DNA of 64,000 nucleotides from Klebsiella phage phiKp_32, in the sequence record LC768500.1. The stretch is one strand, 5' to 3'. The notes beneath the pieces were generated by a model. It did no database searches. It had not been told where the DNA came from and saw nothing but the letters and a program-made list of their open reading frames with translations. Below are positions 810 through 57,145 of the stretch, one piece after another. Every line of letters begins with the position of its first letter. The first letter of the stretch is position 1. The translations under genes were made by a program, and so were the position numbers.

Positions 810-1067
810 ATGAATTTCTTATGGGCCTTTCTTGGGTTTTTACTTATTTCCATTGTTGTTACAGTGGTTCTGGAAGTTAAGCGAGCGGGCGGTAAACCTA
901 TTCCTAAGTTATCGTGGAAGAAGGGATCCTTCCCAGCAATGCCTTTCATCTCCTTTATCTTTGGGTGTTTGTTGGGTCAATACCAGAATATCTGGGTCTG
1001 TTTAATTGGACTCGCTCTAGTCGTGGTGTTACTAAAAACTGACTTCTTCTTCGAAGAAAAAGACTGA
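810..1067 (+). CDS. small membrane protein (2 predicted TM helices)
   Basis: Hydrophobic stretches FLGFLLISIVVTVVL and LIGLALVVVLL; followed by the hairpin at 1069-1098. Confidence 0.5.
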   Translation: MNFLWAFLGFLLISIVVTVVLEVKRAGGKPIPKLSWKKGSFPAMPFISFIFGCLLGQYQNIWVCLIGLALVVVLLKTDFFFEEKD

Positions 1068-1093
1068 CTCTATAGGGCTAGCAAAAGCTAGCC

Positions 1094-1119
1094 CTATATT
1101 ACTTTTATGAATACCCAAC
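1094..1119 (+). promoter_or_regulatory. copy 1 of the recurrent AT-rich promoter-like motif (CTATATTACTTTTATGAATACCCAAC)
   Basis: Matches the other copies at 5387, 14508 and 20686; lies about 17 nt upstream of ORF 1136; its 5' end overlaps the 3' arm of the terminator hairpin at 1069-1098. Confidence 0.5.
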
Positions 1120-1135
1120 TTTAGGAATCAAAATC

Positions 1136-1717
1136 ATGATGAATCAATTAAAGGATTGGATCGATTACTCTTCTTACTGGAATACGTATAACCGTGTCCT
1201 TCTTCGTAAGGGAGGGATGTACACCGAACAGATCGAACTGGAGCTCACCCCAATTAACGACGAGTGGGACGAAGTTAAACTCTGTAAAATCCGTAAGCAT
1301 CGTACGAGCATGGGACCGGGGGATAAAATTAGTCATCATCTCCATCCTGACATCTTTGCATTGATGGAAGAGAAGCTAGGGTATTATTTAGCCCATTTCA
1401 TCTTTCACTACGATATCTACACTAAGCTAACCAATTACGATGCGAGAAGATACTGGTACTTGCTCGATCGCTATGTCTTTAATGGTGGAGGTGGGATACC
1501 TCTGGTGCTGATAGACCCAAACTTTGATTTGCTGAGAGAGGATTGGGCTAAAGGCACTTCCTCGGCGTACACTGATGCAAAACAACGCATTATGGATAAA
1601 TTGAACATAGGTTTAGATCAGGTCAACGATCTGAAATTTCACGACATTTTAAGGCGTTTAGACGCCAACGATCATACGCCGTTTAGAACGGGTGTCATGA
1701 GTTGGGCGGGGGTTTAA
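1136..1717 (+). CDS. hypothetical protein
   Basis: 193-aa ORF preceded by ttaggaatcaaaatcATG. Confidence 0.55.
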   Translation: MMNQLKDWIDYSSYWNTYNRVLLRKGGMYTEQIELELTPINDEWDEVKLCKIRKHRTSMGPGDKISHHLHPDIFALMEEKLGYYLAHFIFHYDIYTKLTNYDARRYWYLLDRYVFNGGGGIPLVLIDPNFDLLREDWAKGTSSAYTDAKQRIMDKLNIGLDQVNDLKFHDILRRLDANDHTPFRTGVMSWAGV

Positions 1718-1720
1718 TAA

Positions 1721-1963
1721 ATGAATCTTTATTTAGTAGAAGATCGAGCTATAGATTATAACGATTACGACGCCTATGTCAGTGCGGTGGTCGCGGCAAG
1801 CTCCGAAGAAGAAGCGAGAGAAACCCGTCACGGCCATCCGGTTTTTAACCCAAATGTAAAAATCCACTGGGTGAGTGATAAAGAACAATTAGCCGTTCGT
1901 TTAATCGGAACCTGTATAGATGAACAGACCGGCGTTATCGACGCTGATTTTAATGCAGGTTGA
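1721..1963 (+). CDS. hypothetical protein
   Basis: 80-aa ORF tightly packed after the previous gene. Confidence 0.4.
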   Translation: MNLYLVEDRAIDYNDYDAYVSAVVAASSEEEARETRHGHPVFNPNVKIHWVSDKEQLAVRLIGTCIDEQTGVIDADFNAG

Positions 1964-2002
1964 TGTATTCACAGAAAATAAAATGTCGAATAGGAGTTGG
2001 TT

Positions 2003-2272
2003 ATGTCTAAAGTATCAGCCAGCCCAACAAAGAGTTTGGGGTTATTGGTTGAAATCAAATCATTAATCAATGATGAACCATGTGCATCCGCCGAAGTCAT
2101 TGAGACTGACCTGGGGTGGATTGTTGAGTTTAAAACCAAAGCCGGTGTGAAGGTACTTGCTTCTACAAGAAATCCGTATCACCCCAAACTTTACAATTCC
2201 CCCAATGCAGCTTTGAATACGATCAAGTCTCTGGGCCTAGCCGAGACTAAAGTATTTTTTCTTAAGTCTTAG
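2003..2272 (+). CDS. small protein, tandem paralog A
   Basis: aggag-N7-ATG start; shares an E..GW.VEFKT..G...S.N.Y.PK....+.FLK pattern with ORF 2303..2578. Confidence 0.55.
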   Translation: MSKVSASPTKSLGLLVEIKSLINDEPCASAEVIETDLGWIVEFKTKAGVKVLASTRNPYHPKLYNSPNAALNTIKSLGLAETKVFFLKS

Positions 2273-2302
2273 GATCCAGGCTAGGTTTATTAAGGAAAGC
2301 AA

Positions 2303-2578
2303 ATGGCAGATACGTCAGAAATCATTATCACCAGAACGTTCGCTCAGTTAAAAGAACTTCGGATAATGATCAGCCGTAAATTGGTTAAGTCGGCTTCTTT
2401 GGTTGAAACTACAGAGGGATGGTCAGTAGAGTTCAAAACTGAATACGGAGATAGGATATTCTCTTCGTCAAAGAATGCGTACTATCCAAAGACCTTTAAA
2501 GGATTTACAGCGCCCATCAAAATGCTGAGAAAGATGGGATTTGACGAAGTAAAGCTGGTATTTCTAAAAGCCAAATGA
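2303..2578 (+). CDS. small protein, tandem paralog B
   Basis: Same length (91 aa) and conserved block as 2003..2272. Confidence 0.55.
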   Translation: MADTSEIIITRTFAQLKELRIMISRKLVKSASLVETTEGWSVEFKTEYGDRIFSSSKNAYYPKTFKGFTAPIKMLRKMGFDEVKLVFLKAK

Positions 2579-2599
2579 TATTAATTTAGGAGAAATGAA

Positions 2600-2926
2600 A
2601 TGAAAGTAACAATCCAAGTGCTGGAAGACAGAGAAGTCGATATTATCGAGGCCTTAGAAAAAAGTTTGTTCGTCCCCCATTTCTATTTCGTGCATCGGGG
2701 GCGGGATAAAGGAGAATTCTTAGGGGAGGATGACGATTCTATTTTGATCATCTCACAGGAGTTGGTTGATTGTTGTCCTGAACTGGTCGTATTGGAATGC
2801 GGGGATTTGGAAAAACTATGTTTCTCCCAACGACGCACCAAAACCGAAAAAGAGGTTATTATCGAATACCTCAAAGCCAATCGAGAAAAGATTATCAAAG
2901 TCACTGACTTGCCGGGGTACTATTAA
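2600..2926 (+). CDS. hypothetical protein, first member of a second paralog pair
   Basis: Shares LGE(D/P)DD..L.IS and EE..+.Y+K...+KII.+ blocks with 2926..3300. Confidence 0.5.
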   Translation: MKVTIQVLEDREVDIIEALEKSLFVPHFYFVHRGRDKGEFLGEDDDSILIISQELVDCCPELVVLECGDLEKLCFSQRRTKTEKEVIIEYLKANREKIIKVTDLPGYY

Positions 2927-3300
2927 TGTTAAAAAATCGTCCTGGGGTAATCGTTACTCATACCGACGCATCTTCTGCTCACGGTTGGATCGATCTGCTG
3001 ATTCGTGATCTCGACGATAAGAACGTTGAGACGCGATTCTGTATCTGCACCCCAACAAACCACAAGTTGGTTCATTTACTGGGCGAACCAGATGACTGCG
3101 TGCTGGAAATCTCCCAATGGAAACGAGACTCCCCGTATAACGTGGGTTATTTAGGAGCGCCGGAAATAAAGGGGTGTGAGCTTTCCGACGAAGAACTTCG
3201 TTCGTATGTGAAAGAGCACTCGGATAAAATTATTGATATCAATCTCGCGCTGGTTTTAACAAATGGGGGTGATTATGACGGCTCGTTATTTTGCCGGTGA
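2926..3300 (+). CDS. hypothetical protein, second member of the second paralog pair
   Basis: ATGA overlap with the upstream gene; similar to 2600..2926. Confidence 0.5.
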   Translation: MLKNRPGVIVTHTDASSAHGWIDLLIRDLDDKNVETRFCICTPTNHKLVHLLGEPDDCVLEISQWKRDSPYNVGYLGAPEIKGCELSDEELRSYVKEHSDKIIDINLALVLTNGGDYDGSLFCR

Positions 3301-3808
3301 TCTGCACTTAGGTGATCCTTCGATCATCAAATACCGTAAGCAGTTTAAAACGGTAAAGGAGCACGATGAATTTATCGCCGATACGATTTTGGTTAAACCT
3401 CGTGATCACGACGTGCTAACCATCGTGGGTGACGGATTCATTAAACCCGAATCGCTGTTCATCCTGAAGAAATTCCCGTATAAGAAACATCTTATCCCAG
3501 GGAATCACTGTATGGAGAAAGGCGTTAAAGTTACTGATCTCGCTGCTTTCTTCGACGTTGTTACCGGATCGTTTAAATGGAAGAGTGGGTTCTTCGTATC
3601 CCATGAACCTCAGCATCCTAATCATCTCCGAGGCCGCATCAATATTCACGCTCATTTGCATGATAAAGTAATCGAAGACGAACGTTATATCGGAGTGTCA
3701 TTAGAACAAACCGGTTATCGTTTAATCCATCACGATGAGATCTTATCTGGTTCTTATCGTACTTATCGCAAACCAACTCTTGAAGACCATTTACATTTAG
3801 GAGAATAG
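3275..3808 (+). CDS. calcineurin-like metallophosphoesterase (Ser/Thr phosphatase fold)
   Basis: Motifs GDLHLGD (GDxHG), VGDGF, PGNHC (GNH[DE]-like) and HAHLH (GHxH) appear in the canonical order. Confidence 0.55.
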   Translation: MTARYFAGDLHLGDPSIIKYRKQFKTVKEHDEFIADTILVKPRDHDVLTIVGDGFIKPESLFILKKFPYKKHLIPGNHCMEKGVKVTDLAAFFDVVTGSFKWKSGFFVSHEPQHPNHLRGRINIHAHLHDKVIEDERYIGVSLEQTGYRLIHHDEILSGSYRTYRKPTLEDHLHLGE

Positions 3809-3810
3809 CC

Positions 3811-4101
3811 ATGGCTCGTAAACCTTCTACCGTAGGCGAGATTATTAAGAAAGAGTATCTCGAACCGATGAACATGAGTATGATGGAACTCTGCCGTCGG
3901 ACTCATTCAAGTAAGGGCGCTATTTTCCATCTGCTTAGCGGGAGCAATCGTCTGAGTATTGAGATGGCGTTTAAACTCGCTAAACTCTTCAACACAACTG
4001 AAGAGTTTTGGCTGAACCTTCAGCGGCAAGTAGATCTTTACGAAGCCAAACGGAATAAAGAACTTAAAGCGACCTTAAAGAAAATTACCCCCGTTGAGTA
4101 G
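3811..4101 (+). CDS. higA: HigA-like Xre-family HTH antitoxin
   Basis: GEIIKKEYLEPMNMS..ELCRRT..SKGAIFHLLSGSNRLSIEMAFKLAKLF..TEEFWLNLQ..VDLYEA aligns along its full length with E. coli HigA. Its start lies 2 nt after the stop of the phosphoesterase gene. Confidence 0.75.
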   Translation: MARKPSTVGEIIKKEYLEPMNMSMMELCRRTHSSKGAIFHLLSGSNRLSIEMAFKLAKLFNTTEEFWLNLQRQVDLYEAKRNKELKATLKKITPVE

Positions 4102-4128
4102 ACCGGGTAATAATTTATTTTTAGGAGA

Positions 4129-4671
4129 ATGATGATGATCAATTGTTTAGAACCCAACGAGTTCGCTCAGTTTAAAGCACAGTGGGATAAATATTTCGAG
4201 GAGGGTCTTCCCGGACTCGATGAAAGAATGAAGGGTCCGATGCTGATCCTGAACGCAATACCCGGGGTAGCGACCCGCTTTTGTTGTTCCGGTCATACCT
4301 TTGAAGAAAGGTTATCGTCCCACCCGACCAAAGCGTATTCTCGCGTACAGAAAAGGAACTTCATTTTTGTCGTTGAAGAAGGTCATGCTGATATTTTCTT
4401 TGCGTTTGAGATACTCTTCAAATTATTGAACAAAGACGAGTTTAGTTTTTGCCGGCCTTCTTTAGAAACCACTCTGCTCAAGAAAAACTTCGGTGAGTCG
4501 GAAACCTATCCGGTTTGGGTATTCGAAATGAATTGGGTTTACGAACTCACCGAGGAAGAAAAAATAAAGGGAAGGGATAAGACCCAGAACGAACTCTGGG
4601 AGAAACTCCTCAGAGGACTGTTCCTGATCACCGATCCTGAGACCCGTCATAAGCATCAGGAGTTACTCTAG
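4129..4671 (+). CDS. hypothetical protein
   Basis: 180-aa ORF preceded by tttttaggagaATG. Confidence 0.5.
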   Translation: MMMINCLEPNEFAQFKAQWDKYFEEGLPGLDERMKGPMLILNAIPGVATRFCCSGHTFEERLSSHPTKAYSRVQKRNFIFVVEEGHADIFFAFEILFKLLNKDEFSFCRPSLETTLLKKNFGESETYPVWVFEMNWVYELTEEEKIKGRDKTQNELWEKLLRGLFLITDPETRHKHQELL

Positions 4672-4806
4672 TCTCTTCGATATTTAGCAAAGCAACAGTT
4701 CTCTTGTTAAGATAAATAAATGATGTAATGGTATGGCCTGTCGGCCTAGGTGGGGGTAGCCTTGTGGATTACTCTCATTCCTCTCGTAAATGTTGGAGAA
4801 ATAAAA

Positions 4807-5322
4807 ATGGCTAAAGAAAACGTTGTTCGTATTCCACTGTATAATTTAGGTAATCTTTCCTGCGTAGGGTATCGAGAAGGGTGTGGGTATAACGTTAAGG
4901 TTTATTGGGGTGATTATCTGCTGGCCTCTAAACCTAATCTCACTCAAGCGCTCGACTTCGCTTATATCGGAGTTCGACTCTTCTCCCCGACCCACAGTGA
5001 ATGGTTAACCAACGATCTGCGCTTAACTATTTGTGAATCGTTGATAAAAGCCCGTTTATTAATTGACGGTAATCATAGCGTAGAGCGTTCTTCTGTTCTT
5101 TCGGAGGGTTTCCTTAAGCATTGGAAAACAGACGAATCCGGAGTAGACTATTATCTGGAAGTACGTCTTGCTAGAGATCCAGGTAAAATAGAAGACGACA
5201 TCGTTCAAGTCACCTTAAAGTACGACAACGACGGGTGTAGTCTCACTCATAGCTTCAAGAAATACGCTTCCGTTTTCAACTATAAAAAGCATTTAGGTCT
5301 TTTCAAACAAGTTACCTATTGA
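4807..5322 (+). CDS. hypothetical protein
   Basis: An internal ATG with ggagaaataaaaATG is a more plausible start than the annotated 4750; followed by the hairpin terminator. Confidence 0.5.
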   Translation: MAKENVVRIPLYNLGNLSCVGYREGCGYNVKVYWGDYLLASKPNLTQALDFAYIGVRLFSPTHSEWLTNDLRLTICESLIKARLLIDGNHSVERSSVLSEGFLKHWKTDESGVDYYLEVRLARDPGKIEDDIVQVTLKYDNDGCSLTHSFKKYASVFNYKKHLGLFKQVTY

Positions 5323-5331
5323 GCCAATCTA

Positions 5332-5360
5332 ACTCCTACTCCCTTATCGGGAGTAGGAGT
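5332..5360 (+). terminator. hairpin terminator ACTCCTACTCCCTTATCGGGAGTAGGAGT
   Basis: Perfect 12-bp stem; its exact reverse complement occurs at 30669-30697. Confidence 0.6.
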
Positions 5361-5386
5361 TATTGCACATGTAAATAAAAACAGAC

Positions 5387-5413
5387 CTGTATTATCTTTA
5401 TGTAGAACAATCC
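5387..5413 (+). promoter_or_regulatory. copy 2 of the promoter-like motif (CTGTATTATCTTTATGTAGAACAATCC)
   Basis: About 25 nt upstream of ORF 5438; aligns with the other three copies. Confidence 0.45.
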
Positions 5414-5437
5414 ATAACCTTTTTAGGAGCAAATAAC

Positions 5438-5740
5438 ATGAACGTCTATTTAGTTAAACCGATGGAATTTACTGGCGATGAAGATATCAACGGCATGGTG
5501 GTAGTGGCAGAAAACAGTGTTGCCGCGCTCCTCACCCATCCTCATGTGGACGAGGACGGGAATTCATTTGAATGGGTACGGGATACGGATTCAGAAAACG
5601 GGGCGTGGGTTGATGAAGAAGGTCGAACAGATATCTTCCATGGTTGTGGGTGGCCAGCACCACATCGGTTACACTGTGTTCTGTTGGGCGTAGCCGCTGA
5701 CGGGATGGAAGAAGGCATCGTGTTGGTCGATCGCGATTAA
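5438..5740 (+). CDS. hypothetical acidic protein
   Basis: 100-aa ORF preceded by tttttaggagcaaataacATG. Confidence 0.5.
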   Translation: MNVYLVKPMEFTGDEDINGMVVVAENSVAALLTHPHVDEDGNSFEWVRDTDSENGAWVDEEGRTDIFHGCGWPAPHRLHCVLLGVAADGMEEGIVLVDRD

Positions 5741-5750
5741 GGGGTAGAAT

Positions 5751-6272
5751 ATGAAAGTTGTTAGATTTGGTAATGTAACCGTCAATAAAGATAATAAACT
5801 GGAGATCGCCCGATTTAATTTCTCCAGTGCGTATGACGGCGAACCAGTCACCCCGGCAGGGATGATTAAAGCTATCGTAAACTGTCTTAATGATTACGTT
5901 GGTAAGACGGATGGGATGTTCAGCCCCGTTAAGGATCTAAGTGGCTCGCCACTTCTAATGGGGTCAAACATTCCAAAAGATCAGTCGGTGTTAATGATTC
6001 CCGACGGCACCCTGGCTTTAGCCGAACTGGATCCTCCTGTCTTTAGCACCAACGAATACACGTTCTTAGAAGTAGAAGAACGCGTTTATCAGCTCATAGC
6101 GATGCAAATAGGTATAACACTCACTACCGAAATGGGCGTCATTCCTGGGTCGGTTGAACTGATTGATGTGGATGACTCTCGTCCACATCCCGACAATGTC
6201 GTAGGTTACTGCCTGACATTAGAAAATCCACCGCGGTATTTCTTGAAAGTTAAGAATAAAGGAGTTCGGTAA
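5751..6272 (+). CDS. hypothetical protein
   Basis: 173-aa ORF. Confidence 0.5.
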   Translation: MKVVRFGNVTVNKDNKLEIARFNFSSAYDGEPVTPAGMIKAIVNCLNDYVGKTDGMFSPVKDLSGSPLLMGSNIPKDQSVLMIPDGTLALAELDPPVFSTNEYTFLEVEERVYQLIAMQIGITLTTEMGVIPGSVELIDVDDSRPHPDNVVGYCLTLENPPRYFLKVKNKGVR

Positions 6273-7057
6273 TGTTAGAGACCCAGCTTAAAGATCGCCT
6301 GACCATCCTGAACACTTTCGAATGGTTTACCTACTTCTGGAATAAATTCCAGGAAGGCATGTATGATGTAAGGCGAACCATGCATAGCGCGTCGGTTGCG
6401 ATTAATAACGGCGATTGTGCGGTAGCCGCTTTAGCGGTAAGTTCCGTTTTGAATCGTCGACTGGATGTTAACGTTGGAATGGCTCGCAATACTCTTCACG
6501 CCTGGGTCACTATCGGCAACGATATCTTTGATACCGAATTTCCAACGGGACACGATATAGCGAGTTTTAAATCTCGTTGGGGCGATCGTATCAGTGAGGT
6601 GGTTTTAACGCCTGAGACTCTCGTAGAAGAGTTTATGCCGTGCGATTTGGTAGGCGCCTATCTTGTAAAAGAATTTTGCGGGACAATGGGCGAGGTGCAT
6701 CCTAAAGAAATCGATTTTCTTCTGACCAACCCTACCGAATATGAATCTCAGGAAGGGATTAGTAAAATCGGAAAGGCTCTCGCATTTGCAGTAGAAGAAA
6801 CCCTGAAAGCCCGCAGGACAGTAACGACTATCAAACACGAGTCTTACTTCACTGCCAAAGAAGCCACGATGGATCATGAGCTCAAAGATCATGTCAGGGA
6901 TATCTATTCCGGTATTCTGATCTGCGTACTGGTGGATAAGAACGATCACAAAGTGATCGGAGAGTCTTATCACAAAGGACCAGAAACAGAACGCACGCTA
7001 CTGGCGAGATCCAGAGCTAAGTTTATTGCTCTGGATAAACTTAGAGACGTGGTGTGA
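6272..7057 (+). CDS. transglutaminase-like cysteine protease superfamily protein
   Basis: Cys/His/Asp triad context GDCAVAALAVSSVL ... HAWVTIGNDIFDTEF. Confidence 0.45.
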   Translation: MLETQLKDRLTILNTFEWFTYFWNKFQEGMYDVRRTMHSASVAINNGDCAVAALAVSSVLNRRLDVNVGMARNTLHAWVTIGNDIFDTEFPTGHDIASFKSRWGDRISEVVLTPETLVEEFMPCDLVGAYLVKEFCGTMGEVHPKEIDFLLTNPTEYESQEGISKIGKALAFAVEETLKARRTVTTIKHESYFTAKEATMDHELKDHVRDIYSGILICVLVDKNDHKVIGESYHKGPETERTLLARSRAKFIALDKLRDVV

Positions 7058-50338: not shown

Positions 50339-53300
50339 TTATTTGCTCGTATACCCCATCCTAGGATCTGGAGCTTTCTGGTTCTGGATTTCTTTAAGCA
50401 ATTGAGCGAGTAAATCGTTAGTTCTTCCTTGGGCTTGAACTTGAGCCGTTGCGACCGGATCGGGTTGCTGAACCGGTTTAGCCAACGGAGTTGGCGGCGC
50501 AGAAGTACTTTGCTCGGTCGGGACCTTAACACGATTAAGTGGGTTAGCCGGATCGGATTTGTACGCGACCGATCCCTCACTCACCGGGGTAGAAGGCACA
50601 GCTCCGATAGGTTTAGGTCCTTGATTAACCGACGGAGTAGTAATCGCTGAAACTGCCGCGACACTGTTAGCTGTTCCTACGTTTTCCGATTTCATCGTAG
50701 GCGGTTTGGCGTCAGGGCTGACAGAGGAAACCGAACTCGGAGGAGTTTCCCCAGAAGAGGAAGGCGTCGCTCCAGCATTAGGATCCACCGTCAACTCATT
50801 GGAAGTCAAACGTTTCATATACTGCTGATAAAGTCTTGTCCTCGCCGGCATATCAGGCAAGCCGTTGGGGTTAAGTCCTTGAGCTGCATATTCAAACGAG
50901 TTGTTCTTCACAATGGACTGAAGTCGTTTACCAGTCGAGCCGTTGGAGAGATACCAGATCAAGGTTTTCGCCATGACTTCTGGATCAGTAGAAACTAACT
51001 CTGGATTCTTAACGAGGTCTTTCCCCACATACTGAGAGGCAGCTCTGAAGTTATCCTTACCCGTAAGCTGAATGAACCCACGGCCTCTGTAAAGCCATCC
51101 GTCGTTAGGACCACTGTTACCCAACCTACCGCCATAAACCGCGTTAGCGATGGCCTGAGGGCCACCAGCCACGATCTGCTGGGCCTGCCCCATCGACTTC
51201 ACTCTACCTGGGAAAATTTCCAACAGCCGACCTGGCTTGTAGTTCATGTTTTCCGCGGTATTCTTAAATCCTCCGCTTTCAAAGTTAGCCAGAGCTAACA
51301 TTTCAGCAATAAGACGAGGATCCGTGAAGCCGGCCTTAATCATCTCCTTCATGATTAATTGCTCTGCGGCTTTCTGGGGAACGCTAACACCTTTGTCTCC
51401 ACCTCCCGACCCGCCTACCGGAGTGACACCAGAAAGATCAACTGTCGACGTATCGGTATTACCCGTAATAGGTTTATAGTTGATGACTGGCTGACCGCCC
51501 GCGATGACGTTATCGCCCATTGCAGCGGTCGCAACAGCCTGATTTAATCCACCCTCACCCATTGAGTGAGCCGAGGTATACGGAACGACTTCTTTAGCTC
51601 CAGAAGCTTTAACTTCTTTGTCACCAAAATTCAATTTCGCATTCTTCGCGGCGGTATCGAGGTTATTAACGATTGCTTTAACCTGAGGTGTGATCGACCC
51701 AGAAGTTGTATTAGGGAACGGCGACCATTTAACCTCCCAAACGGAAGTTGGGGTTTTACCGATATTCACTTTGAGCCCTAAAAGCTCTTTTGCGAAATCA
51801 AAAGCGTTAGTGGCAGTCATGGACTTCCAACCCGCGCTTGGTTTCACCCCCCTCATGATCCTCACGTATTTCACCCACGCCATACAGACTGGGAGGAAAC
51901 GATCCCGGAACCACGTACACCATTGGTTAGCTTGGTCGTCAGTTATTCTGAATGAGTTCTTAAAGAGGTTATACACCGCACCTGTGGTAGAAGTGAATCT
52001 AGCGTCGTTACCGATTACACTGATGTAATCCTCACAATACCGTTCTAACTTCAACACAGCTTCAACACGCCATGGGATGTGTTCCGTGTCACCGTAGGCT
52101 GCTAATCTTAATGCGGTTATCCCGGCCAGAGGTTTATCGCCCCCTGGTAAAAGATCGGTGATGTTAATTTCCATAACCGATTTTGTTACCGGATAACGTT
52201 TATTGATCTCTTCAATATCAGAACGATCCTCGTACGTCCCACCCACTCTCATTTTAAGACTAGACCACCAACCTGCCTTCTCAGATTTTTCAACCTGTTC
52301 GGCGGAGGTCTTCATGGTCACAATGCCTTCTTTCTCTATCCCCTCAGCTGTTCTTCCGTGTCTTTCGTTAAAGCTTTTCAGTTCGTCCAAATACAACCTA
52401 ACCTGATTAATGGTTTGGTCTTTACCCATTATAGGTGTGGCTTCATCGAACTGAGCGGCTATCTGATAAGGATAAGGATTGATGGTACCGATCCTGTCGT
52501 TGATGGTGGAAACAGTAGAGTACAATTTAGCGTCGGTCGATTTATCGAACGTCTCAAAATCCCTGTACCCCGCGGTATCGATCGCAGAAGCGTAAGTCAG
52601 GAAAATAGGTTTGAAACGAAGATTAAACCAAGTGAAGTAAGCCTGCTGCTGGCCCTTGTCATTGGCTTGAGGTATGAAGCTTTGGAATATCTGTTCGAGA
52701 GGAGCTGATTTAGCTATTGAAGCCACCCCAGCGGTTACGACGACATATTCACGTAATGCTTCTTCGGCAGATCTGATCTTAGCGGCTAAATCTGACTCGA
52801 CGTCCTTGATACCATATTGAGCCATACGAAGTTTGAACTGCGACCCTTTGCCTTTGGCGTAATACTTATAGATCAAATACCCGGCAACTGCAACTGCCCC
52901 AATCCCCAACGTTACTGGATTAAATAACAGAGGAGCGACGGCAGTAGCCAAAGCACCTGTACCCGATACAATAGCCGACCCGGCAGCACTCGCACCAGAA
53001 GCAATAGCTGATCCGATCCCGAGGTTAATCCCCATAGCCGACATGGCGCTAGAACCCAAAGATACCGCCGAAGCCGCAGTAAGCGTATTGCTCGCCACAT
53101 CCTTCCAGTTAGTCCCTTCGTGTTCTTCATTGGTGGCGTCGAGGTACATTCCTAATCCAGCGGTAGCCAAACCCGCTAAGCCGAATTTAAATGCCCTTCC
53201 TCTACCTACCCTACCGCCTCTAGTTCTTCTTCCTCTACGTCGGCCTGAAGCCCCTCCTGCAGCATCAACAATATCGTCAACACCATCAGATGCCCGGCGA

Positions 53301-56300
53301 CCTAACAGACCAACAGTAAGGATCTTAGCTAACGACGTTAATCCACTTACAATAGCGGGTAGAGTGGTGATACCGAGGGTTAAGAATTTGGAGAGTTTAA
53401 CACCAAGTCCGGCGACCCCACCCAAAATAGTTCCCATGGGGTTCTTAACGAAACCCAAGAGACCATTAAGGAATCCGCCACCTTTCTTCTCTTCATCGGG
53501 AGAACCGGAACCTCTCTCTCCTTCTCTATGACCGGCGAGATCGATAATAGCGTCCTGATAACGAGATTCACGTTCAGCTTTCGCTTTACGTTCCTTATCT
53601 TCTAAAGAGTTTAAGCGAACATCATCCGTGTTTCCCATTCGGCTTGTTTCATTAACAATATCAGCCTTGATATCCGGCATGTCGTTAATGTCATAACCAA
53701 ACTTACGGCAAAGCAGAGCGTAAATACGATCGACCGAATTGGTAATAGGCGTATAGTCCGCGGTTACAAGATCGTTGATCTTATCTCCAGCTCGCTTACC
53801 GTAACCTTTAGCTCGATCACCCAGTTTCCTGCCCAGGTCAAGAAGTTTACCACCCATTACTCCCGTCATACGTTTGAGGGATTCTATTTTCATCCCCCCT
53901 GATGTAATGAGCCCATCCTCGTATTCGGCTTGGGTAATAATGACGTCGCCGTTCTCATCATACACCGGTCCGTCGATATCTCTCCAACCCTTTACAGGAA
54001 CAACGCTACCATTCAAACGTTTGAAGTATTTACCGTTCTCAAAACCCTTCCTTGTCAGAACAGGGGAATCCTCTCCGACTCGATAAACATCCATTTGGGT
54101 TATTCGATTGGTAATACCCTGACCTATGCCTTTCAATCGGTTAAGAGGATCTAACCAGTTAAAGAGTTTTAATCCGGCTGATTTCACCGCGTTTAAGCCA
54201 CGAAGCACGACGGCCTTGCCTTCGGCACTGAACAGTTTACCCGAAAGACGTTTAGCGGAGATCACGACCTTGGTTCCGAGATCAACGATCGATCCTTTGA
54301 TCTCTTTCCAGCTGGTGATAATTTTCTTTAAAACTTTGTCGTAATACTGACGAGCTCTGAGTTTACGCGCTTCGAGTATTGGATCTTCACTCTCCCCATC
54401 GTAAATGTCTTCATCGTCACTGACGTCTCTGGCGTCCGCCATACTACGAACTTTGGTATATAACGCCCAGGCTGCAGCACCACCACCGATCAACGCCGCT
54501 GTTTTAGGATCGTGAATCGCCAATCCCGCTAACCCACCTAACATCCCACCCAGCATCAGTGGTTCGTGAGCCAGCAGTTTATCCATGCCAGCACTGAAAA
54601 TATCCTTAATCCCACCAAGACTTTTAATGCGGTCGAGGATGGTTTTCTTCTGTGCGGTATCAGCGGCATCTTCAGCATCAGTTTTGGGCTTATTCACTTC
54701 GGCTGGCTGACGAGAAAGGATTTGTTTCAGGACTTCCAATTGTTCCTGATTAATATCCCTTATTCCCATTACAGAATCCGTTAAAGATTTAACTTGCTCT
54801 GGGCTTAATGCATTTCCATCTTGTCTGCCGGGAATCCCGAGTTTAAGCTGCTCGGTGAGTTCCGATAGGGCGGTAACTAATTTACCGGAATCCTTCCCGG
54901 ACAACCCACGACGGTTATTGATAATGGTTTTCGAATTACCCCCACCCATTCCACCACGAGTAGGGAGAGGGCCTACGTCATCCTCTTCGATAAGGCCTTC
55001 GTTACCATTAAGCTCTGATTTTAACCGGTCCCATATCGCATCGGTGTTAAAGAAATCTGACCCGTTTTCACTATTAATCAAATTCATTTCTCTTAATAGT
55101 GGATCGTAACCAGCGTTTCGTAACAAATCGATTTGCTGAGAAATATTAGGGAGATAGCCTTTGAGGTTTTTGGCTCGCAGACTAAGATCGGCCGCCAAAC
55201 GTTTACTTTTAGCGGTCGGCATGTTCAACTGAGCTTTAATACCAGCCAGCCCAGATTTTTTAGCCGCTTCAATATGCTGGTCGGTTAACCTGAACGACCC
55301 CCGCATCACTTGTTCAATTTCTTTACGAATCGATGGAGTTAGCCCGTCTTCGTCTTCCATCCCGAAATAGTTGAACGGGTTGAATCCTTTATCTTGGTCA
55401 ACGTCTCTCGCCAAACGATAAGATAAGAAACGTTTAGCTTCTGGTGACAACGTCCCATTTTTGTCAATGACAGAAACCATGTCGGACGTACCTGAGGCCA
55501 ACCCACTAAATTCTCTCCCATTCAACAAATTACGTTTAACCGCATTTTGGGTTTGTTTATGGCTTAAGAACTTCCCACTGCGATAATCGAAGCGCTCTTC
55601 TTTCAGGTTATCATTACCCGTGCGTATCTTTTCCAAGCTCAGATGAAGCTTAGCGAACCACCCAGGAATGATTTCATTTAACGTACGATCGGATTGACTG
55701 CTCCAGTAGCTTGGCTGAGTCAAATCCATCAAGTTACGTTTCTTGAGTTCGTACTGTTTACCGCGGGAATCGTTGATATTAAAAGAAAGATCGTTTAACC
55801 TATTTCCCAGGAAATTTTTACCTGTTTGTTTTAAACGCCACGCTCTTTCACTTAACCGTTTTTCACCGGGAGCAAGTGAGTCAAGGTAATCGTCGTAGGT
55901 AGAAAAGTCTTCTTCGTAGTTAGCGTTATTGCGGAGAATGGTTCCTGCTAAACCAGCCGCGTTAGTTCCAGCGTATGACAGAACGCTACCCAACTGTTCC
56001 AACTTGCGATATTGCCGGCGGATGTTTTTGGCTTCTTTTGGATAGAGGGTCGCAAGTTTATTAATAAGCTTAGCACCCTGCCCAGATTTAAAGAAAGCTG
56101 GTCCTCTCTCAATGACCTCGTTAGCTAGCATCTGCCCGATAATGGTTCCCATATTGAGACCCATTCCTTCGGACATCTCCATCCCCATTCTACCCGCGCC
56201 AACCATTCCGCTTAAACCAGAAAGCATTCCTTCTCTGGCTTCTTTACCGAACGTCTCGGACAGATAACCCATCACCCCACCGGACCTACGTCCGATTGTG

Positions 56301-57145
56301 GAGAAGATGGAATCACGCAATCTACCTTTAGCTGCCATAGCCAGGGAAGTTTTCTCGTAATCACTCTTACCCGAATTAAGAGTGATCTTTTTAAGCTCGT
56401 CAATCTGACGATGCATCGAGGCTTCCATGAACTTGTAGTATTTAGCGTTGGTTAAATGCATCCGAGCCAATAAGTTGATTTTAACCGCATCGTTCTTAGC
56501 CTGGATTTTATTCTGGTAACGCAAAATACCTTGAAGGGTGGTCGAGATCCCGCCTAACAGCGAATTGGTTGCTTGTTGCTGAGCTAATTGACGACCGCCA
56601 ACTACCGCGGTCATGTTGTTGATAGCCCGCCCAATACCCACCATTGTTCCTGTCTGCTGGGCCGTAACTCCGCTTATAAAACCGGCTAAGCCATCTTCAT
56701 CGACTTCTCCCATACTTGGATCAGAAGGCGTGTATCCTCCTTGATCCCAATGGCTAAAGTCCTTATTGCTGAAGGTCTCCAACCCCTGGGCAATTTTATT
56801 AGGAGCCTTGTCGCCGTGGCGGTCTAAGGTCATCTGAGCAATTGCCTGGAGATCTTCCACCATATCTTTTGATCCGGCTTTGACCTCACTTAGGATCTCC
56901 TGCTTCTTCCAATCAAACTCTCTTTTTAAATCAAAGACAGTCCCAAATGATTTTGGGAGGAGCATTTTAGCCGTTCTCAACCTACCTTCTGAACTTCCTA
57001 TCGTACCGCTGTGGAGCTCACTGAGAAAACCGCTCCCCATGCTCGCAAAGAAACCTTTTTTAGGTGCGTTATCGAAGTCGAAGTCGAAATCTATATCGCC
57101 GGCGAATGGGTCGTCTCCCCAATCGTCGAAATCATCTTTAGCCAT
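50339..57145 (-). CDS. giant virion-associated protein (2268 aa) with a C-terminal lysozyme/GH19-like peptidoglycan hydrolase domain
   Basis: Near the C-terminus: ...LANFESGGF...YRGRGFIQLTGKDNFRAASQYVG... (lysozyme-like/chitinase class I signature GRG.IQLTG..NY). Gly-rich TM-like segments and size are comparable to phiKZ gp181. Confidence 0.75.
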   Translation of the reverse strand: MAKDDFDDWGDDPFAGDIDFDFDFDNAPKKGFFASMGSGFLSELHSGTIGSSEGRLRTAKMLLPKSFGTVFDLKREFDWKKQEILSEVKAGSKDMVEDLQAIAQMTLDRHGDKAPNKIAQGLETFSNKDFSHWDQGGYTPSDPSMGEVDEDGLAGFISGVTAQQTGTMVGIGRAINNMTAVVGGRQLAQQQATNSLLGGISTTLQGILRYQNKIQAKNDAVKINLLARMHLTNAKYYKFMEASMHRQIDELKKITLNSGKSDYEKTSLAMAAKGRLRDSIFSTIGRRSGGVMGYLSETFGKEAREGMLSGLSGMVGAGRMGMEMSEGMGLNMGTIIGQMLANEVIERGPAFFKSGQGAKLINKLATLYPKEAKNIRRQYRKLEQLGSVLSYAGTNAAGLAGTILRNNANYEEDFSTYDDYLDSLAPGEKRLSERAWRLKQTGKNFLGNRLNDLSFNINDSRGKQYELKKRNLMDLTQPSYWSSQSDRTLNEIIPGWFAKLHLSLEKIRTGNDNLKEERFDYRSGKFLSHKQTQNAVKRNLLNGREFSGLASGTSDMVSVIDKNGTLSPEAKRFLSYRLARDVDQDKGFNPFNYFGMEDEDGLTPSIRKEIEQVMRGSFRLTDQHIEAAKKSGLAGIKAQLNMPTAKSKRLAADLSLRAKNLKGYLPNISQQIDLLRNAGYDPLLREMNLINSENGSDFFNTDAIWDRLKSELNGNEGLIEEDDVGPLPTRGGMGGGNSKTIINNRRGLSGKDSGKLVTALSELTEQLKLGIPGRQDGNALSPEQVKSLTDSVMGIRDINQEQLEVLKQILSRQPAEVNKPKTDAEDAADTAQKKTILDRIKSLGGIKDIFSAGMDKLLAHEPLMLGGMLGGLAGLAIHDPKTAALIGGGAAAWALYTKVRSMADARDVSDDEDIYDGESEDPILEARKLRARQYYDKVLKKIITSWKEIKGSIVDLGTKVVISAKRLSGKLFSAEGKAVVLRGLNAVKSAGLKLFNWLDPLNRLKGIGQGITNRITQMDVYRVGEDSPVLTRKGFENGKYFKRLNGSVVPVKGWRDIDGPVYDENGDVIITQAEYEDGLITSGGMKIESLKRMTGVMGGKLLDLGRKLGDRAKGYGKRAGDKINDLVTADYTPITNSVDRIYALLCRKFGYDINDMPDIKADIVNETSRMGNTDDVRLNSLEDKERKAKAERESRYQDAIIDLAGHREGERGSGSPDEEKKGGGFLNGLLGFVKNPMGTILGGVAGLGVKLSKFLTLGITTLPAIVSGLTSLAKILTVGLLGRRASDGVDDIVDAAGGASGRRRGRRTRGGRVGRGRAFKFGLAGLATAGLGMYLDATNEEHEGTNWKDVASNTLTAASAVSLGSSAMSAMGINLGIGSAIASGASAAGSAIVSGTGALATAVAPLLFNPVTLGIGAVAVAGYLIYKYYAKGKGSQFKLRMAQYGIKDVESDLAAKIRSAEEALREYVVVTAGVASIAKSAPLEQIFQSFIPQANDKGQQQAYFTWFNLRFKPIFLTYASAIDTAGYRDFETFDKSTDAKLYSTVSTINDRIGTINPYPYQIAAQFDEATPIMGKDQTINQVRLYLDELKSFNERHGRTAEGIEKEGIVTMKTSAEQVEKSEKAGWWSSLKMRVGGTYEDRSDIEEINKRYPVTKSVMEINITDLLPGGDKPLAGITALRLAAYGDTEHIPWRVEAVLKLERYCEDYISVIGNDARFTSTTGAVYNLFKNSFRITDDQANQWCTWFRDRFLPVCMAWVKYVRIMRGVKPSAGWKSMTATNAFDFAKELLGLKVNIGKTPTSVWEVKWSPFPNTTSGSITPQVKAIVNNLDTAAKNAKLNFGDKEVKASGAKEVVPYTSAHSMGEGGLNQAVATAAMGDNVIAGGQPVINYKPITGNTDTSTVDLSGVTPVGGSGGGDKGVSVPQKAAEQLIMKEMIKAGFTDPRLIAEMLALANFESGGFKNTAENMNYKPGRLLEIFPGRVKSMGQAQQIVAGGPQAIANAVYGGRLGNSGPNDGWLYRGRGFIQLTGKDNFRAASQYVGKDLVKNPELVSTDPEVMAKTLIWYLSNGSTGKRLQSIVKNNSFEYAAQGLNPNGLPDMPARTRLYQQYMKRLTSNELTVDPNAGATPSSSGETPPSSVSSVSPDAKPPTMKSENVGTANSVAAVSAITTPSVNQGPKPIGAVPSTPVSEGSVAYKSDPANPLNRVKVPTEQSTSAPPTPLAKPVQQPDPVATAQVQAQGRTNDLLAQLLKEIQNQKAPDPRMGYTSK

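Follow-up and report, generated by a model that had tools for sequence, protein, structure and literature searches.

In Klebsiella phage phiKp_32, a metallophosphoesterase gene is followed after only two nucleotides by a gene for a HigA-type antitoxin, which raises the question of whether the two form an unconventional toxin–antitoxin pair or whether the phage carries a free HigA. The analyzed window comprised 64,000 nucleotides of sequence record LC768500.1; all positions refer to this window, and all features described lie on its plus strand. The source was phiKp_32, with whose HigA-like protein the encoded protein was 100% identical. This phage is a Miami-like Klebsiella jumbo phage of the nucleus-forming type. 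The region showed 96% nucleotide identity to phage Miami, and the relatives compared for gene order ranged from 85% to 96%. As set out below, we assign a probability of roughly 0.6 to the reading that the two are independent accessory genes adjoining by accident, with the HigA-like protein most likely being a DNA-binding regulator.

The first gene (3275–3808, 177 aa), whose start at 3275 was backed by orthologues, encodes a stand-alone metallophosphoesterase (MPE) belonging to the AQ1665-like family of small calcineurin-fold proteins (PHROG 547). The protein alone produced no direct match above the thresholds of Pfam and NCBIfam and none in the PDB using phmmer, and its family membership was based on PHROG, the family profile and a structure model. 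It matched PHROG 547 "phosphoesterase" with an E-value of 7e-40, and 28 of the 48 members of the family alignment matched Pfam Metallophos. The profile of the family retrieved PDB 1XM7 (E 7e-24), which was also the best match of the AF2 model (pLDDT 95.7, TM 0.70), followed by PptH, Mre11, LpxH, and Vps29. The family profile, the Pfam share and the model thus agreed on the MPE fold, in line with the preliminary description, which had placed a calcineurin-like phosphoesterase in front of the HigA-like ORF.

All five MPE metal-binding motifs (DxH, GD, GNH[D/E], H, and GHxH) were recovered, comprising D9-x-H11 within GDLHLG (codons 3299–3307), G52-D53 (3428–3433), G76-N77-H78-C (GNH at 3500–3508), H110 (3602–3604), and H125-A-H127-L-H129 (3647–3661). 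The residues D9, H11, G52, D53, G76, N77, H78, H110, H125, H127, and H129 were invariant or nearly so in the 48-sequence alignment. The metal-binding motifs initially read as GDxHG, GNH, and GHxH are therefore present, except that the last one is AHLH and not GHxH. A second copy of the gene was sought in the 64-kb window since the relatives gave two matches per genome, and none was found. The gene product is predicted to be a small stand-alone binuclear-metal phosphoesterase resembling AQ1665, a type that is common in virulent phages such as the T5-like phages. Aquifex aeolicus AQ1665 (PDB 1XM7) and the PHROG 547 phosphoesterases have the same small (~170–190 aa) single-domain calcineurin-like fold, the five metal-binding motifs and a stand-alone gene, whereas in the phiKp_32 protein motifs III and V take the variant forms GNHC and AHLH, and the protein falls under the Pfam Metallophos threshold. 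The T5-like members of PHROG 547 carry the database label "serine/threonine phosphatase."

The second gene (3811–4101, 96 aa) encodes an orphan XRE helix-turn-helix (HTH) protein of the HigA family (YbaQ-like). It scored 79.7 bits against NCBIfam TIGR02607 "HigA family addiction module antitoxin" (cut-off 47.7, E 1e-22), covering profile positions 2–80 of 81, and 33.7 bits against Pfam HTH_3 (cut-off 23, E 3.7e-8), while PHROG 1381 "plasmid antitoxin with HTH domain" was matched with an E-value of 3.5e-23. A full-length match was obtained with E. coli YbaQ (PDB 2EBY, E 1.8e-21), and weaker structure matches were VapI (3TRB), HigA of CFT073 (2ICP), GraA (6F8H), PaHigA (6JPI/7CSV), and PvHigA (4MCX). 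With a score above the curated threshold and full-length homology to solved HigA structures, the earlier assignment of this ORF as a HigA-type protein along its full length was confirmed.

YbaQ, the best solved match, aligned over residues 2–93 with 42% identity and shares the size class and the N-terminal HTH HigA architecture of the phage protein. The phage protein lacks the ~17-residue C-terminal tail of YbaQ and has KGAIFHLLSG instead of RNSVSALINN in the recognition helix. In most E. coli strains, including K-12, YbaQ is likewise a toxin-less solo DNA-binding regulator, but it is chromosomal, and its pairing with HigB persists in B2/F strains and the plasmid-prophage D6.

Both genes are under purifying selection, with dN/dS values of 0.02–0.09 among the phosphoesterase orthologues and 0.10–0.28 for the HigA-like gene, whose reading frame was intact in five orthologues. 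Residues 1–34 of the HigA-like protein were invariant among orthologues despite a dS of 0.14–0.45 (0.24–0.45 between alleles), and most amino-acid differences fell within residues 35–46 (codons 3913–3948), which form the recognition helix of the HTH and the next turn. This segment reads KGAIFHLLSGSN in the phiKp_32 allele and NAAISRLLSGNT in the Miami/YC1 allele, and it brackets the equivalents of the DNA-reading residues T40/D43/R49 of P. aeruginosa HigA. The phiKp_32 helix has F39/H40 where most relatives have S/R, which could reflect weaker constraint on DNA binding rather than altered specificity.

The preliminary description stated that no RelE/HigB-like toxin precedes the HigA-like gene, and this held for the entire 64-kb window. 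An HMM built from 61 cellular HigB partners, run over the window in all six frames, found no match (best E 0.24), while the HigB of phage D6, used as a control, scored 3e-38. Similarly, a Pfam scan of the 80 window ORFs revealed no toxin family. The position immediately upstream, which a cognate HigB/RelE-fold toxin would occupy, is taken by the metallophosphoesterase, whereas HigB precedes the gene in 61 of the 80 cellular relatives of the HigA-like protein. The cellular context was obtained from a genome-contig scan with alignment, as a word-indexed protein search gave only near-identical phage proteins for both genes. PADLOC returned no match for the phosphoesterase, the HigA-like protein or the genes replacing HigA in sister phages.

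The junction between the two genes (3799–3813) consists of an AGGAG Shine–Dalgarno sequence within the last phosphoesterase codons (3799–3803), the TAG stop codon (3806–3808), the spacer "cc," and the ATG of the HigA-like gene at 3811, so that the previously described 2-nt distance was read directly in the sequence. Such spacing is not unusual, as the gap measures at most 2 nt at 14 of the window's 50 same-strand gene junctions. This arrangement of Shine–Dalgarno sequence, stop codon, 2-nt spacer, and ATG stands before four genes unrelated to one another, namely HigA and three others in sister phages. The 2-nt gap and the embedded Shine–Dalgarno sequence thus belong to the 3' end of the phosphoesterase gene, and the HigA-like gene has its own Shine–Dalgarno sequence where it does not adjoin the phosphoesterase. 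The junction would provide efficient translation to whichever gene fills the next slot, and it offers no evidence of a functional pair. Translational coupling, formerly taken as a sign of a pair, consequently lost this meaning, the signal being common to unrelated downstream genes.

Both genes are internal to a co-directional unit of about 12 small genes at roughly 1099–5362. A strong intrinsic-terminator hairpin at 1071–1098, the counterpart of which carries a terminator annotation in phage Miami, marks the start of this ~4.2-kb transcription unit, and a perfect 14-bp stem-loop at 5330–5362, after the gene at 4750–5322, is its probable end. In Miami, a terminator is also annotated after the apparent counterpart of the latter gene, matched by gene order and size without alignment. 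The search for inverted repeats and operators within 1000–5500 gave just these two terminator-like hairpins and two intragenic palindromes attributable to chance, and sigma-70-like promoter matches in the region were at or below the shuffle expectation, that is, at chance level. Neither an intergenic space nor a palindrome was present upstream of the HigA-like gene. Since the preceding gene overlaps the phosphoesterase start and the only terminators are those at 1071–1098 and 5330–5362, there is no room for a private promoter or operator, and the two genes do not form an autonomous bicistronic operon of the kind expected of a toxin–antitoxin module.

The region is hyperplastic: entire ORFs have been inserted, exchanged or deleted precisely at the borders of genes. 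The gene preceding the phosphoesterase is a 124-aa ORF (2926–3300) private to phiKp_32. It shares 26 nt with the beginning of the phosphoesterase gene and shows weak paralogy to the 108-aa gene at 2600–2926. A 343-nt insert within it (2929–3271) was absent in all five loci compared (Miami, YC1, KPN8, ZK_P1, and the metagenome contig L013). Downstream of the HigA-like gene lies a 180-aa gene of PHROG 7413 (4129–4671), which directly follows HigA in phiKp_32, YC1, ZK_P1, and L013. A linkage of the HigA-like gene with this neighbor was also considered and was ruled out by Miami, where a membrane and SPFH gene pair stands between the two, and by KPN8, which retains the 180-aa gene without HigA. 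The known counter-defense genes in this region of the sister phages form a NadR/PnuC NARP3-type cassette.

The gene order in related phages showed that the pair is not inherited as a unit. The phosphoesterase and HigA genes adjoin in phiKp_32, Miami, and BUCTxx100, but are separated by a 121-aa and a 76-aa gene in YC1 and by a 147-aa gene in the metagenome contigs L013/L014. In ZK_P1, which also belongs to the separated arrangements, a destroyed phosphoesterase gene is followed by a 124-aa gene, a 76-aa gene and then HigA. A 1.3-kb TnpB element removed 214 nt of this phosphoesterase gene, and with them the GNH and H110 motifs, while the HigA gene remained intact with a dN/dS of 0.10–0.13. The reverse was observed in KPN8, where the phosphoesterase is intact and constrained (dN/dS 0.08–0.09) and is followed by an 86-aa gene and a mere 3' stump of HigA comprising its last ~72 nt; no other HigA homologue was present in the KPN8 genome. 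The adjacency was thus found in three cases, separation in three and loss of HigA in one. No HTH gene was found near the phosphoesterase of the contig L011, which is 58% identical.

The two families also differ in their distribution, with 1022 phage records and 1482 representative protein clusters for the phosphoesterase, and 106 phage records for the HigA-like protein. No phosphoesterase gene was present within 2 kb of HigA at the 80 cellular loci or at the other phage HigA loci examined, and no HTH gene adjoined the phosphoesterase in RisingSun, a T5-like phage or Eowyn. When the pairing was sought in other phage genomes, as the preliminary description had proposed, it was encountered solely within the Miami group among the loci examined. 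Toxin-less HigA copies were found in the virulent phages of the Miami group, the FBKp24 group, AH04, the Ea35-70/RAY group, PCH45, and ICP1. The best cellular and plasmid homologues of the phiKp_32 protein were ~42–46% identical, and a 42%-identical HigA is encoded in 111 Klebsiella plasmid records. At the sole Klebsiella plasmid locus inspected, on a 4.5-kb plasmid, a RelE/ParE-family toxin gene lies upstream of HigA.

The canonical HigB–HigA systems (Proteus vulgaris Rts1, P. aeruginosa HigBA, P. putida GraTA, and orf70/71 of phage D6) share the antitoxin fold and family (TIGR02607) with phiKp_32, and in both the antitoxin gene follows another gene after a very short spacer. However, this other gene encodes the RelE-fold HigB in the canonical systems and a metallophosphoesterase in phiKp_32, whose window contains no HigB. 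Unlike the canonical systems, the phiKp_32 genes lack an autonomous two-gene operon with a promoter and operator and are not conserved as a unit. T4 Dmd, which acts against RnlA/LsoA, and NADAR/DarG-like proteins, which act against DarTG, are likewise toxin-less antitoxin-type proteins of phages, and the phiKp_32 homologue lies in a region that carries counter-defense genes in its sisters. Anti-toxin activity was demonstrated for Dmd and the NADAR/DarG-like proteins, of which the phiKp_32 protein would be a candidate counterpart; Dmd and NADAR are also non-HTH proteins, unlike HigA.

Taken together, the two ORFs appear to be independent accessory genes that are neighbors only in this Miami-like sub-lineage. 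The second gene encodes a toxin-less HigA-family XRE HTH protein closest to E. coli YbaQ, most likely a dimeric transcription factor that recognizes specific sequences in phage or host DNA. Its closest characterized relative, YbaQ, is a DNA-binding protein that most E. coli strains retain as a solo regulator. Since YbaQ binds DNA, the phage protein retains the family-conserved HTH and core residues, and the recognition-helix motif T[IL]SRL is common to five diverged virulent-phage lineages, a DNA-binding role is indicated, and the protein is probably a solo DNA-binding regulator. Several observations count against regulation. No operator or target site for the protein was found, about three quarters of the cellular relatives in the subfamily are antitoxins, and the regulation of phage genes in a nucleus-forming phage would require import of the protein into the phage nucleus.

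The first of the two initial readings, in which the HigA-like protein is translationally coupled to a toxic or effector phosphoesterase and governs the activity or the expression of this partner, is barely credible. It draws on the 2-nt adjacency in three phages and on the fact that HigA-type antitoxins normally come after their toxin gene, but the comparative data already contradict it. One or two unrelated genes intervene in YC1, ZK_P1, and L013/L014, the phosphoesterase of KPN8 remains intact and selected after the loss of HigA, and the HigA of ZK_P1 outlasted the loss of the phosphoesterase. Furthermore, the coupling junction serves unrelated genes, the phosphoesterase is a stand-alone gene in more than 1000 phage genomes and lacked an HTH partner at the loci examined, none lies near the 80 cellular HigA loci, and PADLOC recognized neither protein. 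It is also hard to see what addiction logic would contribute to a strictly virulent phage. The second initial reading, a free HigA, is consistent with all findings, the protein being a true HigA-family member that is toxin-less in the virulent lineages examined and under purifying selection. It is very unlikely that this free HigA is a decaying, functionless remnant of a captured higBA cassette. While the absence of a partner toxin and the loss of the gene in KPN8 are in keeping with such a relic, the dN/dS of 0.10–0.28 with an intact frame in five orthologues, the retention of homologues in several distantly related virulent phage groups and the separate Shine–Dalgarno sequence where the gene stands apart from the phosphoesterase all argue against it.

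A free HigA could either regulate genes or counteract HigB, and both roles are consistent with all findings. As a decoy antitoxin, which we regard as possible but rather doubtful, the protein would be made during infection as a counter-defense factor binding the HigB-type RelE-fold ribosome-dependent mRNases of the host or its plasmids, which may otherwise be freed upon decay of the host HigA and abort the infection. Since Klebsiella plasmids commonly carry HigB–HigA pairs of the same subfamily, as suggested by the 111 records and the toxin gene at the inspected locus, an anti-toxin role is plausible. The genuine family membership, the position of 61 of the 80 closest cellular relatives directly downstream of a HigB gene and the role of YbaQ as the antitoxin of HigB-1 in E. 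coli B2/F strains point in the same direction, as do the recurrence of toxin-less HigA across several virulent phage groups, the invariant N-terminal 34 residues beside a variable recognition helix, the counter-defense genes in the neighborhood of sister phages and the precedents of Dmd and the NADAR/DarG-like proteins. On the other hand, neutralization in type II toxin–antitoxin systems is usually specific for the cognate partner, and the closest cellular and plasmid homologues are just ~42–46% identical. The recognition-helix features are kept across distant phage lineages, which implies that DNA binding is selected, KPN8 is a viable isolate despite the loss of the gene, PADLOC did not recognize the protein, and the literature searched contained no report of a phage HigA decoy, including in ICP1 or jumbo phages. 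It is unlikely, too, that the toxin-less HigA proteins of Miami-like, Agricanvirus, FBKp24-like, and PCH45 jumbo phages and of Vibrio phage ICP1 are all decoys against HigB-type mRNases, with HigBA being actively countered abortive-infection systems. If so, the phage nucleus would offer no escape from a cytoplasmic defense that targets translation, which would account for the recurrence in nucleus-forming phages.

The pairing arose as a side effect of cassettes being shuffled in a hyperplastic part of the phage genome, and it therefore has no importance as a toxin–antitoxin pair. The locus instead illustrates clearly that, in dense phage genomes, genes that adjoin and seem translationally coupled can mimic an operon-level module, with a slot after the phosphoesterase whose occupant changes while the ribosome-binding site and the 2-nt spacer stay. 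Orphan HigA homologues recur in virulent phages of hosts rich in higBA modules. If HigB toxins were neutralized by these homologues, a type II HTH-type antitoxin mimic would join the short list of phage anti-toxin–antitoxin factors, and direct evidence for HigBA systems in phage defense would be provided. KPN8 is a natural HigA-minus relative and thereby a ready-made comparison.

Closely packed plus-strand ORFs run in series from 2600 to 4700, and among them the metallophosphoesterase ORF (3275-3808, plus strand, 177 aa) is followed by the HigA-like ORF (3811-4101, plus strand, 96 aa). This confirmed the two-gene observation of the preliminary description, including the 2-nt gap, as the stop codon TAG (3806-3808) is followed by "cc" and by the ATG at 3811, with an AGGAG Shine-Dalgarno sequence (3799-3803, plus strand) lying within the final phosphoesterase codons. 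The window DNA is approximately 96% identical to that of the Klebsiella jumbo phage Miami (253 kb), which, according to the literature, is distantly related to RAY, a nucleus-forming Erwinia phage, and has 124 proteins in common with the Erwinia phages RisingSun and Joad.

The HigA-like protein was 100% identical to a phiKp_32 protein labelled "HigA family addiction module antitoxin", and it matched NCBIfam TIGR02607 with 79.7 bits (cut-off 47.7), as well as Pfam HTH_3 and PHROG 1381. E. coli YbaQ (2EBY) was aligned to residues 2-93 (E 1.8e-21), while VapI, CFT073 HigA, GraA, P. aeruginosa HigA, and P. vulgaris HigA were weaker structure matches. Judged by these sequence matches, it is a genuine HigA family member, as had been assigned before. 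YbaQ, its closest characterized relative, is essential in E. coli phylogroups B2 and F, in which it keeps the higB-1 toxin under control; K-12 and most other E. coli strains have lost the toxin and kept ybaQ as a solo DNA-binding regulator, whose DNA binding was the subject of a ChIP-exo study.

Among the best 80 cellular relatives from a scan of species-representative genomes, 61 had a HigB-like ORF directly upstream, and in the plasmid-prophage D6 the YbaQ-like gene comes after a toxin gene matched by Pfam as HigB-like (E 4e-35). An HMM built from the 61 cellular partner ORFs scored the D6 toxin, the control, at 3e-38 but detected no HigB when all frames of the 64-kb window were searched (best E 0.24), and the 22 Pfam families from a scan of 80 window ORFs included no toxin family. 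The phiKp_32 HigA-like gene is truly an orphan without a toxin partner, and the earlier remark that no RelE/HigB-like toxin precedes it held for the whole window. Toxin-less homologues were also found in FBKp24-like, AH04, Ea35-70/RAY-like, and PCH45 jumbo phages and in ICP1. The FBKp24 homologue (locus L005, 1575-2297) is annotated as a 240-aa protein whose C-terminal third is the HigA-like domain (HTH_3 at residues 154-207), reflecting either a fusion at the N-terminus or a start placed too far upstream.

The phosphoesterase itself had no match in Pfam, NCBIfam, or the PDB by direct search. Its assignment was nevertheless right because of the family-level evidence, comprising a match to PHROG 547 "phosphoesterase" (E 7e-40), a family alignment, a family profile matching Aquifex AQ1665 (1XM7; E 7e-24), and an AF2 model (pLDDT 95.7) with 1XM7 as the top match (TM 0.70) and other metallophosphoesterases next. 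An exhaustive HMMER search gave 1482 representative clusters of mostly stand-alone proteins of 160-190 aa, and Pfam Metallophos was matched by 28 of the 48 aligned members. The residues D9, H11, G52-D53, G76-N77-H78, H110, H125, H127, and H129 were invariant or nearly so in this alignment and correspond to the five calcineurin-like motifs, whose wording was corrected to GDLHLG, GNHC, and AHLH.

The proposal that the two genes form a toxin-antitoxin-like pair was not supported, since in close relatives the two are separated, or one of them is lost or destroyed. The two genes are adjacent with a 2-nt gap in phiKp_32, Miami, and BUCTxx100. In YC1 they are separated by 121-aa and 76-aa genes, and in the metagenome contigs L013 and L014 by a 147-aa gene. 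In the Raoultella phage VB_ZK_P1, 214 nt of the phosphoesterase gene, including the GNH and H110 motifs, are replaced by a 1.3-kb element (L004 3488-4782, equivalent to 3436-3649 of the window), and the destroyed gene is followed by 124-aa and 76-aa genes and an intact HigA gene. The element encodes a 379-aa TnpB (NCBIfam guided_TnpB, E 1.7e-92) of the IS200/IS605-type, RNA-guided endonuclease family, and seems to have entered the genome of this virulent (lytic) jumbo phage recently, by an insertion of the transposon type. In KPN8, the phosphoesterase is intact, and the HigA gene has lost its first ~225 nt to an unrelated 86-aa ORF. The stump (L003 5114-5197) keeps the last ~72 nt (~24 codons plus stop) with 90% nucleotide identity to Miami and encodes a product ending in LYEAKRDKELKATLKKIVPISKV before the stop codon; KPN8 is thus a relative that naturally lacks HigA, and its genome contains no other HigA homologue, as all ten Klebsiella records among the family matches belong to other phages. 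In L011, a 240-kb contig of a metagenome jumbo phage, a 58%-identical phosphoesterase is followed by a 178-aa protein, with no HTH gene nearby.

The selection analysis agrees with this gene-order comparison in arguing against a pair, as dN/dS was 0.02-0.09 for the phosphoesterase, KPN8 comparisons included, and 0.10-0.28 for the HigA-like gene, VB_ZK_P1 comparisons included. The junction is also generic: its layout (Shine-Dalgarno in the last codons, stop, 2 nt, ATG) is found in front of four unrelated genes in these phages, 14 of the 50 same-strand junctions in the window have gaps no longer than 2 nt, and HigA genes located away from the phosphoesterase have their own Shine-Dalgarno sequence. 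The wider, separate distribution of the families likewise speaks against a pair, with 1022 phage records for the phosphoesterase (e.g., T5-like, Staphylococcus, and Acinetobacter phages) and 106 for the HigA-like family. Neither the 80 cellular HigA loci nor the other phage HigA loci examined had a phosphoesterase within 2 kb, no HTH gene lies beside the phosphoesterase in RisingSun, a T5-like phage, or Eowyn, and PADLOC had no match for either protein.

The other alternative of the preliminary description, a free HigA acting as a regulator or against host HigB, is compatible with the data. We favor, with a probability of about 50-55%, a solo, dimeric, sequence-specific DNA-binding regulator. 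The protein keeps the family-conserved core and HTH residues, and the recognition-helix motif T[IL]SRL[LIV]xG (codons at 3913-3948 of the window, with homologues in Miami, FBKp24, and the further loci L006, L008, and L009) is shared by solo HigA-like proteins from five distant lineages of virulent phages, where it is more uniform than in the 61 HigB-paired cellular homologues. YbaQ, too, works as a regulator on its own in most E. coli strains. In the window allele, VB_ZK_P1, and L013, AIFHL replaces the motif. Between orthologues of the Miami group, amino acid differences are concentrated at residues 35-46, with two alleles, NAAISRLLSGNT and KGAIFHLLSGSN, and by the ungapped alignment offset this segment brackets the equivalents of the DNA-reading residues T40, D43, and R49 of P. 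aeruginosa HigA. This concentration of differences fits either a changed operator specificity or a relaxed DNA-binding constraint.

A decoy antitoxin directed against host HigB toxins is the main rival, and we consider it rather unlikely. A 42%-identical HigA homologue is common on Klebsiella plasmids (111 records), with a RelE/ParE-family toxin gene directly upstream on the one small plasmid inspected, but the phage protein has low identity to every host antitoxin, and KPN8 manages without the gene. T4 Dmd and NADAR/DarG-like proteins are precedents for orphan phage antitoxins, and in sister phages the genomic neighbourhood is enriched in counter-defence genes, whereas conservation of the DNA-reading motif across phage lineages points away from a decoy and toward the regulator. 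Both families have entries in existing catalogues and carry annotations in sister genomes, so the finding is ordinary; the role of orphan HigA homologues in virulent phages is a modestly interesting question.

About 12 ORFs with overlaps or short gaps lie between a strong terminator hairpin (1071-1098), whose counterpart is annotated as a terminator in Miami, and a perfect 14-bp stem-loop (5330-5362); Miami likewise has an annotated terminator behind the gene that, judged by its size and place in the gene order, seems to be the counterpart. The start of the phosphoesterase gene shares 26 nt with a 124-aa ORF (2926-3300), and because of this overlap and the dense ORF run there is no space for a dedicated two-gene promoter/operator. 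This ORF is weakly paralogous (E 0.004) to the adjoining 108-aa gene (2600-2926; PHROG 24465) and sits on a 343-nt insertion (2929-3271) private to phiKp_32, being absent from the five compared loci (Miami, YC1, KPN8, VB_ZK_P1, and L013). The locus is a hyperplastic accessory region, with gains, exchanges, and losses of whole ORFs at gene boundaries. Miami and KPN8 carry a membrane and SPFH gene pair one to three genes downstream of the HigA position, and just downstream of the locus in sister phages is a NadR-like and PnuC-like cassette (Miami, L001 7010-8815; YC1, L002 5383-7188; KPN8, L003 7049-8820; L013 3791-4909), which matches NARP3, an NAD+-reconstitution counter-defence described in 2026. 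Neither the pair nor the cassette is present in the window or in VB_ZK_P1. In L011, a gene with a Pfam Tad3 match (5152-6282) lies ~1.6 kb downstream from the phosphoesterase homologue, which again hints at an accumulation of anti-defence genes in regions of this kind. Across the whole window, 4 of the 80 scanned ORFs matched the HNH_3 endonuclease family, which together with I-HmuI/NUMOD-type matches suggests several homing-endonuclease genes. The window also encodes a thymidylate synthase, a thymidine kinase, a Cpn60-like chaperonin, RlaP, and an nSTAND NTPase, as well as a 2268-aa minus-strand ORF at 50339-57145.
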